Shown here: piece by piece, positions 9,860 through 25,910 of the stretch
Position numbering within the stretch: position 1 is the stretch's first letter
Layout: every line of letters starts with the position of its first letter
Assembly (NCBI RefSeq): GCF_000803625.1
Contig: NZ_CP007496.1
Span: 450,001-482,000 of the forward strand
Reading direction: 5' to 3'
Source: Candidatus Nanosynbacter lyticus
GTDB taxonomy: Bacteria > Patescibacteriota > Saccharimonadia > Saccharimonadales > Saccharimonadaceae
DNA: 32,000 nucleotides
Notes under the pieces: model-generated
The model's database searches: none
Told to the model about the DNA's origin: nothing
What the model saw: only the letters and a program-made list of their open reading frames with translations
Made by a program: the position numbers and the translations under genes

Positions 9860-10506
9860 TAAAGCACACTCGTCTTGTTAATTTCCTGCTGGAGTTTGGA
9901 AAAAATTGCGTGTGGATCTGATGATTTTTGAATAACGCCGCCAGCATTTAAGACATTAACACCACCCTGCACCAGGCTATATGCATTATCCACTAAAACG
10001 CCGCCATCCCAACCAATTTCCACGTTAGGATTAATGGCTTTAATGAGTCGAATTTTTTCCAACTGCATCAAACTGGCAGTCCCGCCAAATCTACCCAACT
10101 CGCCACTAAAAATCATCACATGGTCAGCGAGTTTTATAAATTCTTCGACAGTCCGCGGCACCGTTGGCTTTAATAACGCTAGGCCAGCCATGATACCAGC
10201 CTGACGAATCTGCATAAGCGCCATTTTTACATCGCCCGTGGCTTCCGCGTGGACTATAATCATATGTGGTCTTAGGGCAATCAACTTCGGTATATATTCC
10301 TCCAGATTGTTGACCATAGCATGAATATCGATAGTCCAACCCTCGGGTGCCCATAATTCCTGAATACCGACCGTCAACGTCGGCGCAAATTCACCATCAG
10401 AAATATCAATATGTACCCGCTCAACAAAACCAGTTATCCTATCAACTTGCTCTTTATACTGAGCAGCGTTTTCTGCCAAAATAGCCGGGGCAATTACAGC
10501 GCTCAT
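9859..10506 (-). CDS. rpe: Ribulose-phosphate 3-epimerase (divergent)
   Basis: The 215-aa ORF is colinear with Rpe landmarks: IAPAILAEN, HIDISDGEFAPTLTVG, DIHAMV, VHAEA, GWDGGV. Confidence 0.75.
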   Translation of the reverse strand: MSAVIAPAILAENAAQYKEQVDRITGFVERVHIDISDGEFAPTLTVGIQELWAPEGWTIDIHAMVNNLEEYIPKLIALRPHMIIVHAEATGDVKMALMQIRQAGIMAGLALLKPTVPRTVEEFIKLADHVMIFSGELGRFGGTASLMQLEKIRLIKAINPNVEIGWDGGVLVDNAYSLVQGGVNVLNAGGVIQKSSDPHAIFSKLQQEINKTSVL

Positions 10507-10955
10507 GACAATTCATCCAACTGCGCATTGCGCCGATTAAAGCGTGGAGCATTGGCGTACGGAGTATTCAACCACGTTTCTACAATACCCTTCCAAGCTG
10601 ATTCATCGTCTTCCAAAATTCGCGCCGGCAAACACAATACATTCGAGTCATTATCATGACGCGTCATCTTTGCCTCGAAAGCATCCCAAATCACGCTGGC
10701 ACGAATTCCTTTGAATCGGTTGGCCGCCATACACATTCCTTGACCGCCGCCACAGATTAAGATAGCTCGCGGATCTTTACTATCATCGCCAATAATTTTC
10801 AATACTGCCGCCTGAGCGAATTGCGGAAAATCATCGTCAGGGTTTAATTCTACGCCACCAACATCTTGTACGTCATAGCCATTTTTAACCAAATACGCAA
10901 AAACTTTTTCCTTCAACATAAAGCCGCGGTGGTCAGATCCGAGGTAGATTTTCAT
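10503..10955 (-). CDS. rpiB: Ribose-5-phosphate isomerase B
   Basis: The protein reads MKIYLGSDHRGFMLKE...CGGGQGMCMAANR. I moved the start to ATG 10955 (M24 of the tracked ORF), which gives the usual length of about 150 aa. Confidence 0.9.
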   Translation of the reverse strand: MKIYLGSDHRGFMLKEKVFAYLVKNGYDVQDVGGVELNPDDDFPQFAQAAVLKIIGDDSKDPRAILICGGGQGMCMAANRFKGIRASVIWDAFEAKMTRHDNDSNVLCLPARILEDDESAWKGIVETWLNTPYANAPRFNRRNAQLDELS

Positions 10956-10961
10956 GATTTT

Positions 10962-10990
10962 AGTATAAGCGTTTTCGGTGATTTTTGCAA
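10962..10990 (-). promoter_or_regulatory. Putative promoter of the rpiB-rpe-tkt operon, leaderless arrangement
   Basis: The minus strand reads TTGCAA-17nt-TATACT-AAAATC-ATG, with no SD. Confidence 0.55.
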
Positions 10991-11043
10991 GAGAAAGTCG
11001 GAGATTACTCCAGGGGTGAAGCATGCCTATTTGACAAAAAGTA

Positions 11044-11072
11044 TTGACATTTTATAACTGGTATGATATAAA
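11044..11072 (+). promoter_or_regulatory. Putative promoter of small-ORF cassette B
   Basis: The sequence reads TTGACA-17nt-TATAAA, with TG at the extended -10 position. Confidence 0.55.
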
Positions 11073-11080
11073 TAGATTAA

Positions 11081-11155
11081 CTTTTGTTCAAAGTTTTGTC
11101 TTAGGGCGGAAGTCGCCCTTTAGCTTTGAGTATCTTCCTGAAAGGAAGTGAAGAG
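11081..11155 (+). promoter_or_regulatory. Structured 5' leader, copy B of the repeated leader motif
   Basis: It has the same nested stems as copy A (TTCAAAG/CTTTGAG and AGGGCG/CGCCCT). An SD-sequestering hairpin CTTCC-TGAAA-GGAAG follows. Confidence 0.55.
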
Positions 11156-11395
11156 ATGAAGGTAAAGTTCACTCTCAGCAATGGCCAGTCATTCGCCACG
11201 AAAATCACATACGGCTTCAAGGACACTAGGGATCTAGTAGAAAATCTGTCTAGAATGCTAGGAGAAGCCACAGACAAATCTGTCGTGGAACTCGAAACAG
11301 AAGACGGGATGTTTCTTGGTCAGGCCGACCGACATTGTGTCGGTCGAAATCCGGAGCTAAAGTGTCTCGCGCCAGCAGAAGGCGCGCTAAGATAA
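11156..11395 (+). CDS. Small (79 aa) hydrophilic hypothetical protein
   Basis: ATG 11156 lies 7 nt after GGAAG. The unit has its own promoter and terminator. The protein shows no similarity to the cassette A protein and belongs to no family I recognise. Confidence 0.6.
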   Translation: MKVKFTLSNGQSFATKITYGFKDTRDLVENLSRMLGEATDKSVVELETEDGMFLGQADRHCVGRNPELKCLAPAEGALR

Positions 11396-11427
11396 ATATT
11401 CTGTAAAACCGCCGGAAATACCGACGT

Positions 11428-11463
11428 CCCCGCACTATCACAGTGCGGGGTTATTCCTTTTCT
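11428..11463 (+). terminator. Rho-independent terminator of cassette B
   Basis: The hairpin is CCCCGCACT-atcac-AGTGCGGGG, followed by TTATTCCTTTTCT. Confidence 0.7.
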
Positions 11464-11478
11464 GGATTCTGGAGCAAA

Positions 11479-12501
11479 CTATTCGCTCTGGTTGAGATAA
11501 TGTCCGACATCCGCCACCAGTTCAACCAGCCGGTTCGAATAACCCCATTCATTGTCATACCAAACCATGACTTTGATCAAATTACCACCAACAACCTTCG
11601 TCAGCGGCAAGTCAACAACCCCAGAGTGCGAATTGCCGATGAAGTCGCGGCTAACTAAAGGTTCCTCAGAAACGCCCAGAATACCCTGGTAAAAGTTACT
11701 TTGCGCGGCTTTTTTGAAGGCTTCATTTACCTGCTCAACCGTTACATCGCGTCGGAGCAGTACCGTCACATCACTGAGCGACACCACTGGCGTTGGGACA
11801 CGAACACTGAGACCATCGAATCTACCAGTCAACTGCGGCAGGGTTTTCGTCACAGCAATGGCTGCACCCGTTGTTGTTGGCACCATATTCTCAGCAGCAT
11901 TACGACCTTCACGTAAATCCTTGGATGGCGCGTCTTGCAATCTTTGGCTAGCGGTGTAGCTATGCACTGTCGTCAACATTGATTTTTCCACGCCAAACTC
12001 TGCGTCCAGAACCGCCATCACCGCGCCCAGACTGTTGGTGGTACAGCTGGCGTTAGATACAATTGGCGTTGCGTCCTTGATTTTACTATCATTAGTACCT
12101 AGCACAATCGTATCAACGCCGTCAGACTTGGTTGGACCGCTGATAACCACGCGCTTGGCACCGGCAGTCAAGTGCTTACCTGCGCCGTCTTTATCAGTGA
12201 AGAATCCGGTAGATTCAATCACCACGTCAATATTCATATCGCCCCACGGCAAGTTTGCTGGATCTTTCTCTGCTAGGACTTTAACGGATTGACCTTCAAT
12301 AATCAGCTCATTTTCCGTAAAATCAACCTGCCGACTATACTCACCATAATTGCTGTCATGCTTGAGCAGGTACGCCAGAGTCTTCGTGTCCGTCAAATCA
12401 TTAATCGCCACAATCTCTAAATCACTCCGCTCGCGAGCAATCTTAAAAGCGTTACGCCCAATCCTTCCAAAACCATTAATTGCTATTCTTGTTACTGACA
12501 T
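11479..12501 (-). CDS. gap: Type I glyceraldehyde-3-phosphate dehydrogenase
   Basis: The 340-aa ORF has NGFGRIGR, the SNASCTTN active site and WYDNEWGYS. It has a GGGGAGGG SD. Confidence 0.96.
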   Translation of the reverse strand: MSVTRIAINGFGRIGRNAFKIARERSDLEIVAINDLTDTKTLAYLLKHDSNYGEYSRQVDFTENELIIEGQSVKVLAEKDPANLPWGDMNIDVVIESTGFFTDKDGAGKHLTAGAKRVVISGPTKSDGVDTIVLGTNDSKIKDATPIVSNASCTTNSLGAVMAVLDAEFGVEKSMLTTVHSYTASQRLQDAPSKDLREGRNAAENMVPTTTGAAIAVTKTLPQLTGRFDGLSVRVPTPVVSLSDVTVLLRRDVTVEQVNEAFKKAAQSNFYQGILGVSEEPLVSRDFIGNSHSGVVDLPLTKVVGGNLIKVMVWYDNEWGYSNRLVELVADVGHYLNQSE

Positions 12502-19163: not shown

Positions 19164-19817
19164 TTAGCGCATTTTTTGATAAGCTTTTTTACGCGTCCAA
19201 GTGTCAATATGTCCGTTTTCTAGTTCAGCCAGCGTCAGCTCAAAAAACTGCACCGCCGCCGTAGCGTACAGCCAAGCCAACGCCATTTTGACATAGTAGC
19301 CGTCGTGGGTGATATTTCGCAGTGCGGCAAAAACTTGATCAACATGCAATTCATCCAAAAAATTAGTCATCAAAGAAACCACACCGTAGCGTACCGTCAA
19401 TTCAGCTTCGCTTTGCAAATATTTCAGCGCAAAATCCCACCACGACTCACCAGCAAACCGCCGCTTTTTATCGACAAACACATCAATGTGTGCCCATGAA
19501 TCAACGCGTGGTAAATATTGCTTGGTCAAATCAATCGCCGTCTGATCATCGAGCCGAGCGTGCGTAATCAGCAATCCACACAGCAGCACGTAGTCGAAAG
19601 ATTGGTTCTTCTCTGCTAGCAAATTGCGAATATCCGCTGCACTCATATCAGGCACCAGCTCCCTCGCCAGCCGCCGCAAATCCGGCACCCGCACACCAAC
19701 GACAGGCATATCGGTATTGACGATACGCTTATTAAAGGCGGCATACGTCTCGTTACCCTCAGCGAGCTCCGCCAACTTCATTACAATATCATCATGCATA
19801 TTGCCGCTAGCTTTCAT
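19164..19817 (-). CDS. DNA alkylation repair protein (AlkD-like HEAT-repeat family)
   Basis: The sequence FNKRIVNTDMPVVGVRVPDLRRLAREL is typical of the DNA_alkylation family. The start is uncertain: candidates are TTG 19823 and ATG 19817, 19799 and 19781. Confidence 0.75.
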   Translation of the reverse strand: MKASGNMHDDIVMKLAELAEGNETYAAFNKRIVNTDMPVVGVRVPDLRRLARELVPDMSAADIRNLLAEKNQSFDYVLLCGLLITHARLDDQTAIDLTKQYLPRVDSWAHIDVFVDKKRRFAGESWWDFALKYLQSEAELTVRYGVVSLMTNFLDELHVDQVFAALRNITHDGYYVKMALAWLYATAAVQFFELTLAELENGHIDTWTRKKAYQKMR

Positions 19818-20148
19818 GATCAAACTCGATCCCTAAAACTCCGTATCGTTCCTGGTCTGCTGCAGAATAGAACTCGTTAATCTGATTTTCCAGCCATTCA
19901 ACACTTTCACCGCCAAACTTAAGCAGGTCATTATGAGAAAACAGATCATGAAACGTCGCGTAACGCAGCAACCCAACCACCGTCGCAGTCATGGTTTGCT
20001 CGGGGTTCGTGCGGTTAATAAACATAATCTGATCGCCAAGCTGAATCTTCTGACGCTTCTCGTCATATAGCCGCGACTCGATAGTTTTCTGACCGGAAAC
20101 AATGGCAGCAAATGGCTCAGAGTGAAGCTTAAGTCTATGTGTAGTCAT
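19807..20148 (-). CDS. ASCH domain-containing protein
   Basis: The 113-aa ORF reads LKLHSEPFAAIVSGQKTIESRLYDEKRQKIQLGDQIMF, typical of the ASCH/PUA-like fold. Confidence 0.75.
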   Translation of the reverse strand: MTTHRLKLHSEPFAAIVSGQKTIESRLYDEKRQKIQLGDQIMFINRTNPEQTMTATVVGLLRYATFHDLFSHNDLLKFGGESVEWLENQINEFYSAADQERYGVLGIEFDHES

Positions 20149-23435: not shown

Positions 23436-23520
23436 AGATCTCCTTTCTTGGTTCTATGCCAGTGTAGCAGGGGTGTGTGAAGGGAATGTGAAATGGAGAT
23501 CTGTCTAACTCTGGGTAATT

Positions 23521-25854
23521 CTACTAACTCTAGAAAACGGTTATCATCATCTTAATATAGAGGCTATGAAGAGATTTTTTTAACTCTCCGATATAAATTA
23601 ATCAATTCATTGATATCCATATCAACAAGAGGTTCATACATAAAAGCATTAAGGTGTATATTTTCTGGGGTCATAATATTTACCTCATCAATCACTTTCA
23701 CAGTATCGTTACTGCACTTAGTCTGTTTAAATGCATCAGAGAGGCTCCTCGTTTGATTTTTCTGAGCCTCCAATTGATCAAGAAATTCTTGTGAAGAGCC
23801 GCTTTCTGACCCTTCACGACCCCAAGATATTTGACCGCTATATTCTTTTAACTTACGCTTCATATATTCTTCCGCTCTATGTCTAATTGCAATAGCCAGA
23901 ATGATTTTATATTCAAGTAAGGATTTTTCGATGGTTATTGTTTCAGCTTCTGTGTAAATTGCGTCGACTATTGGAGTGTCTGTATTGATATTTATAAAAT
24001 CACTCCTACCTAAGTGTCTCTCGTAGATGTCTTTAAGTGACTGAAATGTTATGTCAGATGTTTCTTCTTTATTATGTAACAATTTAGTTAACTCACCGTA
24101 ATCTGCATCGTCTTTCCCTTTAGTATATTCAATTAGATTGCGCACTGCGGGAATAAGCGCAATTACATGAGCGAGCGTCATATTGTCCTTCCAGTGGTCA
24201 ATTGGATTTCTCTGATAAAATTCTTTTCTCAATATAACCTCGCCATTGTTCAGCTCTGCGTGCAAATGAGCGTATCTAGGTAAGCCAAGTCGACTAGTAA
24301 TCGTTCTATAGAAATCAAAATTATGCGACAAGATAATGAGCTTAAAATTTTTGCAATTTGCCATTTCATATAAATATTCAACAATTGCATACTTATTTTT
24401 ATAGTCAAAAGAATCAGCAATATCATCAACTACTAGTAAAACTTCTTTGTCTGTTCCTGCTAAATCTTTCTTCATTTTCTCAATATCAAAAATAATATTT
24501 AGCAGATATAAGGATCTCTTCTCTCCTTGGCTTAGAGTGTCCTTGATTTCAAGCTCTCCTCTACTGATAGTTTGCTGCCGACCATCTCTAGTAAATACAA
24601 ACTCTACCTGTGGAATATTCTCACCCATAATAGCACTTGTTCCGTTGGCAATTTTCATTTTATACGGCACCGTAAATCGTTCTTCAAAAATTCTTAGCGC
24701 TTCTCCCCAGCGTGTCTTTTCTGGATCTATGCCACCAATCTCATGCCGAAGACTATTCCACTTATCTTTAAGGTTGCTAAACGTGGTATTATCTTTCATA
24801 TAAGATAGCCATAATTGCCTACGTAGATCTTTAAGCTTAGACTCCTTTAGATACTGCACTACATCAGGGTTATTCTCTATAACTCTTCTTAGTACACCAC
24901 CTTTAGCTGTTTTCAAATCTTTCTCTATATCAGTAAAGGCCTTGCTTTGCTTAATCTCTTGTTCAATTCCCTTTACTACATCACTAAAATCTTCAGTTGT
25001 ACGTATTTCTTCCTCGCCAAAAAGTTTTACAAGATTATCGTTTACGAAAAATCCATTATCTTTCAGTGATTTCTCGACATTTTTAAGTTCAGACAGACTA
25101 AAAATACCCTTCTTTAAAAAACCATGTCGTTCATAAATCTCATTACTAGTTTTACAGAATTCTTCAATATTTTCTTGAAACCCTTTTTTCTTAATATATC
25201 CCAGTGTAGTATTATCAAAAATATCCGAATATTTAATTTCCGAAAAATCAATTCCTATACGTCCCTGTATAAGTTCCAACCCCAGTAAGATACTGCCATC
25301 CAGATCAAAATCTTTTACGATCTTTGGCTCTAGCTCACGTACATTCACGCCTTGTATAACTTTTTTAATTTTAAGACCAGAAGCTTTTTCTAAATCTTTC
25401 AATAAGTCGCTTTTTAGCTTGATAACATCTGATATCTTTTCCTTTATAGATTCATCTACCAATAGATCGGCAAGATTACCTGACTGATAAGAGGCCTCAA
25501 AGCTTTTTATCACGAAAACATCTTCTTCTGAAATATCTTTTCCATCGATGGTTATTTTTGCTTCTCCTGGGATATCAAAAATCTCATCTCTAATTTCTTT
25601 TTGCTTTTTATCTTGTATCTTTTTGAAAGTCTTAGCAAATGATGTTTTCATTAAGCCATTTTTCGCATAAATGGCAATTACACTAGTGTCAGAGAAAGTA
25701 AATTCACTTTCCAACTTTTGAATCCCGTAGCAATTAACTAAATCACATTTTATTTTTTCCATTTTATCCCCTCATTTTATATCTTACTTCACTTTCTTGT
25801 TTTCTTTAATAAGATTCGTGGGGCAAGCCATATTTTCTTTTCCAAACTACTAAC
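23521..25854. other. AT-rich compositional island carrying a single gene
   Basis: Hand counts of 60-nt lines give 18/60 G+C at 24421-24480. The flanking genes give 36/60 at 22141-22200 and 32/60 at 26101-26160. The boundaries are approximate. Confidence 0.6.
23564..25762 (-). CDS. ABC/SMC-like ATPase of RloC/PrrC (AAA_13)-like architecture, putative stand-alone defence/abortive-infection protein
   Basis: The 732-aa ORF has a GAGGGG SD and a P-loop-like YAKNGLMKTS (aa 32-41). A K/E-rich helical insertion of about 250 aa follows. It also has the signature LSQGEK (aa 410-415), Walker B VLLVVDDIADSFD (aa 441-453), LSHN (aa 478-481) and a C-terminal domain of about 235 aa. Confidence 0.9.
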   Translation of the reverse strand: MEKIKCDLVNCYGIQKLESEFTFSDTSVIAIYAKNGLMKTSFAKTFKKIQDKKQKEIRDEIFDIPGEAKITIDGKDISEEDVFVIKSFEASYQSGNLADLLVDESIKEKISDVIKLKSDLLKDLEKASGLKIKKVIQGVNVRELEPKIVKDFDLDGSILLGLELIQGRIGIDFSEIKYSDIFDNTTLGYIKKKGFQENIEEFCKTSNEIYERHGFLKKGIFSLSELKNVEKSLKDNGFFVNDNLVKLFGEEEIRTTEDFSDVVKGIEQEIKQSKAFTDIEKDLKTAKGGVLRRVIENNPDVVQYLKESKLKDLRRQLWLSYMKDNTTFSNLKDKWNSLRHEIGGIDPEKTRWGEALRIFEERFTVPYKMKIANGTSAIMGENIPQVEFVFTRDGRQQTISRGELEIKDTLSQGEKRSLYLLNIIFDIEKMKKDLAGTDKEVLLVVDDIADSFDYKNKYAIVEYLYEMANCKNFKLIILSHNFDFYRTITSRLGLPRYAHLHAELNNGEVILRKEFYQRNPIDHWKDNMTLAHVIALIPAVRNLIEYTKGKDDADYGELTKLLHNKEETSDITFQSLKDIYERHLGRSDFININTDTPIVDAIYTEAETITIEKSLLEYKIILAIAIRHRAEEYMKRKLKEYSGQISWGREGSESGSSQEFLDQLEAQKNQTRSLSDAFKQTKCSNDTVKVIDEVNIMTPENIHLNAFMYEPLVDMDINELINLYRRVKKISS

Positions 25855-25910
25855 ATAAAGCAAACCCCGATAATCTATACCTCATTATAACCGCCAATCC
25901 ATTGTCGCCA

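Follow-up and report, generated by a model that had tools for sequence, protein, structure and literature searches.

What does a solitary gene for a large, insertion-split ATPase do in Candidatus Nanosynbacter lyticus, and does it belong to the anticodon nucleases (ACNases) that its motifs recall? The stretch analysed here, called the window, comprises 32,000 nucleotides (nt) of contig NZ_CP007496.1 (positions 450,001 to 482,000), and the gene in question is a minus-strand open reading frame (ORF) of 732 amino acids (aa), which a preliminary description took for a possibly undescribed relative of PrrC and RloC acting as a single-gene system. The ORF is a real gene: it begins with an ATG codon preceded by a GAGGGG Shine–Dalgarno-like box, and the chance of 732 stop-free codons at 34% GC is ∼7e-25. 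On balance, we favour the reading that it came in by horizontal transfer, has been kept for its function and belongs to the PDC-S46 family as a single-gene member. It would encode a self-contained abortive-infection protein whose ATPase part controls a C-terminal effector that is probably a nuclease. A role of the window gene in defence is likely; the nuclease step is put forward tentatively.

Family identity and genomic context of the homologues

The protein matches the PADLOC model PDC-S46 over practically its entire length (E=1.9e-208, 692.6 bits, residues 1–730 against profile positions 1–718 of 719), and it also matches PHROG 38705, whose function is not annotated (E=9e-102). The window gene is a new member of a candidate family that is already catalogued, and the description of it as undescribed does not stand. 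At E≤1, PADLOC listed only PDC-S46, PDC-S06, SduA and AbiLi, the last of these (E=0.085) being the sole match to another group of ABC-ATPase defence proteins. The PDC models of Payne et al. (2024 preprint) represent genes found inside BREX, DISARM and type I restriction–modification (R-M) systems, and their 145 candidates are described as untested (10.1101/2024.01.29.577857). The window protein shows no difference from PDC-S46, to which it belongs, and the embedding signal behind the PDC models is reproduced independently by the context survey below.

More than 6300 proteins in a 90%-identity collection match the window protein, and a profile of the C-terminal domain reaches 1151 clusters at 50% identity. 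Full-length PDC-S46 members occur across Bacteria, as well as in Archaea such as Methanohalophilus and Micrarchaeota, and 6 of 5426 complete Escherichia coli genomes encode a full-length protein. Members encoded on CP140800.1 (7498–9660, locus L098) and on two other Rhizobium plasmids bear the depositor name ‘phage infection protein'; everywhere else they are annotated ‘hypothetical protein' or ‘AAA family ATPase'.

The context of the homologues was surveyed in 79 diverse genomes or loci, and no fixed partner emerges: 116 Pfam families are represented among the 133 immediate neighbours, and the most frequent family occurs eight times. The commonest neighbours are N6_N4 (type III) methyltransferases (8), type I S subunits (5) and DUF4391 proteins (4), followed by N6_Mtase, Eco57I and nSTAND3 (3 each) and by C5 methylase, Mrr, ResIII, Uma2 and HEPN (2 each); Vsr also figures among the defence-type neighbours. 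When the tally is limited to recurrent neighbour clusters, an R-M or defence-type gene lies no more than four genes away in at least 30 of the 79 loci. The homologues therefore do not reside consistently in non-defence contexts, in line with the defence-island enrichment for which the preliminary description proposed a survey, and this context makes PDC-S46 a candidate anti-phage family.

Several placements are intimate. In locus L059, the order is hsdM–hsdS–[gene]–hsdR with a 4-nt overlap, which is the arrangement known from PrrC, and in L044 it is hsdM–hsdS–[gene]–AAA_14/DUF4143–hsdR. A five-gene order, SNF2–DUF4391–[gene]–Mod–Res, recurs in six loci (L014, L021, L022, L029, L058 and L084) ranging from Firmicutes to Colwellia. 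The cassette combines a SNF2 helicase of ∼1080 aa, a DUF4391 protein of ∼217 aa, a type III Mod protein of ∼640 aa and a type III Res protein of ∼1020 aa, with the family gene lying at ∼10001–12200 in each locus; the start of the family gene overlaps the DUF4391 stop by 1–8 nt, and in L066 the family gene comes after Res. In Veillonella parvula, the family gene is directly upstream of McrBC, and another homologue directly follows a type II R-M system. In Anaerococcus and in a Bacillota metagenome-assembled genome, giant proteins of 2547–2700 aa are encoded immediately downstream, combining an Eco57I-type methyltransferase with a ResIII/SNF2 helicase and showing DrmD-like matches (L019, 12351–20453; L020 and L028, 12297–19940), with C5 methylases upstream. 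In E. coli E8 (L103, NZ_CP104526.1, 1533–16384), the homologue WP_096983205.1 (‘AAA family ATPase') is part of a MADS-like cluster, in the order mads1, large hypothetical genes, DEAD/DEAH helicase, family gene and frameshifted pglX, followed by IS5 and a dynamin/patatin island. Members are also found in plasmid accessory regions. In several Proteobacteria (L032, L062, L071, L075 and L093), the family gene adjoins a recurrent pair consisting of a ∼900-aa SMC/LmuB-like ATPase (AAA_23/SMC_N) and a ∼390-aa calcineurin-like metallophosphatase, which looks like an SbcCD-like or Lamassu-like module.

Architecture of the protein and its low-GC islet

The gene, its parts and the islet that contains it are as follows (window coordinates).

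23564..25762, minus strand: whole ORF, 732 aa, member of PDC-S46 and PHROG 38705
25478..25762, minus strand: N-lobe of the ATPase head, aa 1–95, with β-hairpin, P-loop and helix 1 (secondary structure of the model; Foldseek matches to SMC/Rad50 heads)
25640..25669, minus strand: deviant Walker A motif YAKNGLMKTS, aa 32–41 (80-sequence alignment)
24668..25477, minus strand: helical insertion, aa 96–365, ∼12 short helices and a small hairpin, no CxxC (model)
24230..24667, minus strand: C-lobe of the ATPase head, aa 366–511 (hhalign against AAA_13 C-halves; alignment with the Smc4 head)
24518..24535, minus strand: ABC signature LSQGEK, aa 410–415 (motif conservation)
24404..24439, minus strand: Walker B and D-loop LLVVDDIADSFD, aa 442–453, followed by an invariant YKNKY (motif conservation)
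24311..24331, minus strand: H-loop LSHNFDF, aa 478–484 (motif conservation)
23567..24229, minus strand: all-α C-terminal domain, aa 512–732, presumed effector (model; conservation)
25763..25910, minus strand: upstream spacer with the GAGGGG ribosome-binding site
23436..25910, no strand: low-GC islet made up of the gene and both intergenic spacers, from the histidine-kinase stop to the FtsX start (GC content overall and at third codon positions, GC3)

A whole-protein AlphaFold model built on 30 homologues (pLDDT, the predicted local distance difference test score, of 84.1) places in order the N-lobe with its β-hairpin, P-loop and helix, the helical insertion, and the C-lobe carrying the signature, Walker B, D-loop and H-loop. 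A Foldseek search of the protein data bank (PDB) retrieves cohesin, Rad50 and SMC heads (E values of 2e-5 to 1e-3, probability 1.0), together with condensin, SbcC and RecF heads and the retron protein PtuA (9e8z, 9n69), the whole set spanning E values of 2e-5 to 1e-2. Sequence searches of the whole protein against Pfam, NCBIfam and PDB give no clear PDB match and only sub-threshold hits to SMC_N (24.7 bits against a 40-bit cut-off) and to the RecF C-terminal region (21 bits against a cut-off of 172). SMC_N matches all 30 of the close family members examined, in each case below threshold. By fold and profile, the head belongs to the SMC/Rad50/RecF-type ABC ATPase superfamily, and the split ABC/SMC-type head recognized in the preliminary description is borne out by the structural matches, by the SMC_N hits and by the C-lobe comparison described below.

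Conservation was assessed in an alignment of 80 sequences from Bacteria and Archaea (≥32% identity). Residues S411, G413, E414, D446, D447, D450–D453, Y454-K-N-K-Y458, H480 and N481 are essentially invariant, D446, D447, D450, S451, F452 and D453 being conserved in all 80. The earlier placement of the Walker A, signature and LSHN (aa 478–481) motifs is exact, and that of Walker B, previously given as aa 441–453, was one residue off. The Walker A motif deviates from the canonical GxxxxGK[ST] throughout the family, whose consensus is Y-A-(P/K)-N-G-x-M-K-(T/S)-S with proline usual at the third position: the first glycine has given way to alanine, and the one preceding the lysine to methionine, each in 75 of 80 sequences, and the lysine itself is kept in 79. 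The window protein reads A33-K-N-G-L-M38-K39-T-S. Walker B lacks a catalytic glutamate because the motif ends in DD and not in DE.

The segment between the two lobes is rich in lysine, leucine and glutamate as previously noted (13.6%, 12% and 9.6% over aa 96–345), and the cysteines of the protein (positions 6, 11, 203, 470 and 683) confirm that there is no CxxC zinc hook. Its interpretation as a Rad50/SMC-type coiled coil does not hold, since the model shows short helices, the longest of 25 residues, and a small hairpin; the long coiled coil with zinc hook that is characteristic of RloC is thus absent from both model and sequence. The insertion (aa 96–365) is presumed to be a sensor or regulatory module.

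The C-terminal domain (∼220 aa, 11 helices) was also modelled separately (pLDDT 86.7, predicted template modelling score 0.86). It had been called uncharacterized, and so it is: Pfam, NCBIfam and PDB sequence searches return no above-threshold match, and Foldseek searches of the model against PDB and BFVD return no match and no HEPN structure. Some 20 polar residues are invariant in the 80-sequence alignment, among them R541, N542, T559, H563, K565, E617, K619, R627, E631, T671, T698, P699, E700, H703, N705, E710 and D714, and E545 is conserved at 95%. They include two RxxxE elements, R541..E545 and R627..E631, each followed by an invariant histidine (H563 and H703, respectively). The stretch T698–D714 lies in a loop modelled at partly low confidence (pLDDT <50 at 704–707), which would fit a mobile catalytic loop. 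The Rx4-6H motif of HEPN proteins is absent across the family alignment. Readings of the conserved motifs as PLD (HxKx4D), PD-(D/E)xK (ExK), HNH/His-Me, HD or MazG were rejected by eye against family conservation, given the lack of conservation of D570, the all-α fold and the missing HD doublet. Among the 150 best matches, full-length proteins (∼705–780 aa) carry the domain at the C-terminus only; shorter matches, considered as stand-alone or otherwise fused versions, begin within the ATPase and appear to be fragments of the same architecture that lack the N-terminal part.

The gene lies in an islet of ∼2.5 kb with sharp boundaries and a GC content of 0.33–0.36 (0.34 for the gene), against ∼0.51 in the flanks. 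Its GC3 is 0.29, compared with 0.64 and 0.68 in the adjacent histidine-kinase and FtsX genes. No repeats, transfer RNA (tRNA) genes, Rfam features or mobile-element scars were found in the islet flanks, no tRNA gene or Rfam family at gathering threshold occurs in the window (1–32000), and in a promoter and terminator scan, which was uninformative, no promoter-like site of the upstream spacer stood out above shuffled sequences. On one side, the gene adjoins a two-component system (histidine kinase), and on the other, an FtsX/ABC transporter; as previously described, it stands alone, with no R-M gene within 10 kb in the window. Orthologues 85–97% identical occupy the same interval, with a response-regulator/histidine-kinase pair and an FtsX/ABC transporter as its borders, in related metagenomic genomes. 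Among the Saccharibacteria orthologues, the pairwise ratio of nonsynonymous to synonymous substitution rates (dN/dS) is 0.12–0.15, with dS up to 0.53, indicating purifying selection. Given its foreign composition and low dN/dS, the gene is therefore foreign-looking yet selectively maintained.

The histidine kinase–FtsX interval of Minimicrobia-like genomes is a spot where accessory genes vary (L099, 8212–11656; L101, 4147–6000; L102, 11889–13781), containing ASCH, Ham1 and NUDIX genes in one lineage and GrpB and DUF421 genes in another. One Minimicrobia-like lineage has an OLD-like TOPRIM ABC ATPase directly beyond the ABC transporter. In orthologues separated from the window gene by dS values of 0.3–0.5 (L001, L099 and L101), GC3 stays at 0.29–0.33 next to flanking genes at 0.64–0.68, with no visible amelioration. 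The orthologue of Candidatus Minimicrobia naudis (P0040, 698 aa, 88% identical) starts 42 residues late, and its final ∼35 residues are wholly divergent (…VIDLVIILIPEYMHLNYFSVLSFC), with loss of the invariant TPExIHxN loop; the divergent end could be due to a frameshift pseudogene or to an assembly error. Elsewhere in the window, a 113-aa ORF (19807–20148, minus strand) directly downstream of the ABC-transporter ATPase matches in position the ASCH-annotated neighbour in L101 and overlaps a spurious 213-aa ORF of the opposite strand. Nearly all long ORFs of the window lie on the minus strand, and the cumulative GC skew drops steadily across positions 1–32000.

Relation to AAA_13, PrrC and RloC

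The assignment to AAA_13 (PF13166) made in the preliminary description holds for part of the family only. The window protein has no match at E≤1 (gathering cut-off 36 bits), and only 2 of 30 close relatives match at E≤0.01. Some relatives do cross the cut-off, namely a Vibrio protein (L052, 65.9 bits), P0120 (37.7 bits) and L094 (36.1 bits), and another, P0119, falls below it with 33.2 bits. The matches of the relatives cover profile positions 309–605 of 713 only, corresponding to the end of the insertion and the C-lobe of the head. With the window protein below and only some relatives above 36 bits, the family therefore stands at the edge of AAA_13.

For direct comparison, real PF13166 proteins were retrieved with an invented consensus query, many of them annotated at JGI as ‘wobble nucleotide-excising tRNase'. 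All comparisons are with these RloC-like AAA_13 proteins, which belong to the Pfam family of PrrC and include no genuine EcoPrrC sequence. Alignment by hhalign of the head C-lobe against 38 AAA_13 C-halves gives a probability of 95.2% (E=2.6e-8), rising to 96.9% (E=1.7e-10) with more diverse alignments, and the C-lobe motifs LSxGEK, DDxxSSxD and [ST]HNxxF are thereby homologous to those of genuine AAA_13 proteins. Local alignment of the C-terminal domain with the C-terminal region of the RloC-like proteins (PNxxRRFLExF...KFxNxxSH) reveals no significant similarity (probability 0.6–3%). With homologous C-lobes and a dissimilar C-terminal domain, PDC-S46 is thus a peripheral branch of AAA_13-type ABC ATPases that is neither PrrC nor RloC.

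The proposed kinship with these two proteins fails on other grounds as well. PADLOC detects PrrC (10.1101/2024.01.29.577857), and listed neither a PrrC nor an RloC model for the window protein at E≤1; the coiled coil and zinc hook are also missing. The ACNase (HEPN-type) domain of PrrC and RloC with its Arg–Glu–His triad was not found, and only a short RxxxE...H likeness is seen. This R-x3-E...H pattern recalls RloC-like sequences as a short-motif resemblance, for which homology is contradicted by the profile comparison. The window copy does not occupy a PrrC-type position between hsdS and hsdR, which is adopted by relatives in L059, L044 and L043. The contrast previously drawn between an R-M-embedded PrrC and this solitary gene accordingly holds in the window genome and not elsewhere, as the L059 arrangement demonstrates.

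An ABC ATPase with an RNase attached at its C-terminus has its precedent in PrrC and RloC (PMC3710099, PMC3458546), and the window protein resembles PrrC in combining an N-terminal ABC-ATPase part with a C-terminal domain that is presumed to be an effector. Like PDC-S46, the RloC-like AAA_13 proteins retrieved, which are of the Pfam family of PrrC, have a Walker B motif ending in DD (IDDPISSLD). PrrC itself is ∼400 aa long and has no large insertion. The window protein differs from it by its large insertion, its deviant Walker A, its profile-unrelated C-terminal domain and the lack of an R-M locus, although some PDC-S46 relatives do lie between hsdS and hsdR as PrrC does (PMC3710099). With RloC, it shares a length of ∼700–800 aa, an insertion-split head, a mostly solitary occurrence and AAA_13-type C-lobe motifs (COG4694/Pfam AAA_13); it differs in having no Rad50-like coiled coil or zinc hook, in scoring below the AAA_13 threshold and in carrying a C-terminal domain other than the ACNase/HEPN domain. 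A wider likeness exists with OLD/GajA, AriA of PARIS, PtuA of Septu and retrons, LmuB and JetC, in all of which an effector is coupled to an ABC head that works as sensor or switch, as proposed for the window protein. The window protein differs from these in having no TOPRIM, HNH or other known nuclease as a partner or fusion.

Proposed mechanism, alternatives and significance

In the mechanism that we propose, two copies of the protein would pair through their SMC/Rad50-type ABC heads, whose dimer-interface motifs (signature, DD Walker B, D-loop and H-loop) are evident in both sequence and fold. The head would dimerize on nucleotide, and the deviant P-loop together with the DD Walker B suggests a slow nucleotide-dependent switch rather than a motor. 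From the genomic context, the helical insertion may sense an infection cue or, where the gene is embedded in an R-M system, the state of that system. Switching would then release the all-α C-terminal domain as a toxic effector, leading to abortive infection. The invariant arginine, histidine, lysine and glutamate residues would best suit a nuclease, with RNA or tRNA as the preferred guess by analogy with PrrC and RloC, which are thought to work by such ATPase-gated effector release (PMC3710099, PMC3458546). In its Saccharibacteria host, the window protein would act alone. Since it fails the tests of membership for both PrrC and RloC, the claim is therefore that it works like these proteins, not that it is one of them.

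Several observations weigh against a self-contained abortive-infection protein. No defence gene adjoins the window gene in the window, and the family is rare on phages (one record, on a phage contig) and on plasmids (27 records). The Walker A motif lacks both canonical glycines, so that nucleotide binding is only predicted, and the C-terminal domain yields neither a nuclease fold nor a HEPN motif nor a profile match. No study or test of PDC-S46 proteins was found in the searchable literature, and MANTIS/Gao_RL and the BREX survey proved unrelated to the family.

The same evidence bears on four other explanations. The protein could be a true but very divergent ACNase of the PrrC/RloC type, with a HEPN-derived tRNase domain and R541/E545/H563 or R627/E631/H703 as the triad. 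Its architecture and the hsdS–[gene]–hsdR placement are those of PrrC (PMC3710099), and some relatives score above the AAA_13 threshold. The family sequence IPFVR-N-LIE-Y followed by Y-x3-T-x3-H recalls LPNxxRRFLExF followed by Y/W-K-F-x-N-x-x-S-H in RloC-like AAA_13 proteins, and a forced global hhalign alignment sets R541/E545 on the RloC-like R/E pair. Against these points stand the negligible probability of the local C-terminal alignment and the absence of an Rx4-6H motif, of a PADLOC model for either protein and of a HEPN structure in the Foldseek searches. The dimensions disagree as well: the domain has ∼220 aa and 11 helices, whereas the stretch after the H-loop in RloC-like AAA_13 proteins has ∼150 residues, and glutamate and histidine are 18–25 or 54–72 residues apart, compared with 36–39 in RloC-like proteins. 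We regard this origin as unlikely. Equally unlikely, in our estimation, is an accessory ATPase of DNA-modification-based immunity, which would not be toxic in its own right and would regulate type I, type III or MADS-like systems by sensing DNA or a complex; the window copy would then be an orphan with unlinked partners or a re-purposed descendant. The conservation across phyla of the SNF2–DUF4391–[gene]–Mod–Res position, with its start/stop overlaps, the embedding in hsd and MADS-like operons and a C-terminal domain without recognizable catalytic fold all speak for such a regulator, but most loci have no such cassette or shared partner, the solitary Saccharibacteria copies are under purifying selection and the many invariant charged residues of the C-terminal domain suggest catalysis.

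Less probable still is that, like Wadjet or Lamassu-type SMC systems, the protein targets mobile-element DNA, plasmid or transformed, instead of acting by RNA-based abortive infection. An SMC/Rad50-like head and the occurrence of family members beside LmuB-like SMC and metallophosphatase pairs and in plasmid accessory regions would suit this, but the protein lacks both the long coiled coil that would entrap DNA and a recognizable DNase fold, and neither a kleisin nor a nuclease accompanies it. Least plausible of all, and very improbable, is a housekeeping ATPase of the RecF/RecN/SMC type engaged in DNA repair or chromosome maintenance: the weak RecF and SMC_N matches that would point to it fall far under their cut-offs, and the foreign GC3, the variable insertion site, the patchy distribution (as in the complete E. 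coli genomes) and the R-M and defence neighbourhoods all argue against it.

A self-contained, ATPase-gated abortive-infection protein remains our preferred reading, in a family that falls in the well-known class of ABC-ATPase-based defence proteins and would strike specialists as plausible rather than surprising. If PDC-S46 does work as a defence, it would add one more ABC-ATPase-gated effector to PrrC, RloC, OLD and PARIS, and because its effector domain is not yet assignable to any fold, it may hold new enzymology. That the gene recurs between hsdS and hsdR and within cassettes of the type III and MADS-like kinds suggests that it stands guard over methylation-based immunity as a second line. 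A bolder, speculative version, which we rather doubt, is that the C-terminal domain has a toxic effector fold of a new kind, unrelated to HEPN, TOPRIM, HNH and PD-(D/E)xK, and acts as a nuclease or another phosphoesterase, and that the ABC head gating it uses the non-canonical P-loop A-x-N-G-x-M-K-T-S. PDC-S46 would then be a mechanistically new single-protein abortive-infection system guarding type I, type III and MADS-like methylation-based defences, and the window gene would be among the few immune genes of a 0.7-Mb Saccharibacteria epibiont.

New ground would lie in the biochemistry of the deviant P-loop, in the unassigned C-terminal domain and in the way that type I, type III and MADS-like systems would be guarded as by PrrC. 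The full-length E. coli homologues are a convenient starting point for experiments. That a Saccharibacteria genome of 707 kb retains the gene under purifying selection is relevant to the question of how ultra-small epibionts may defend themselves.

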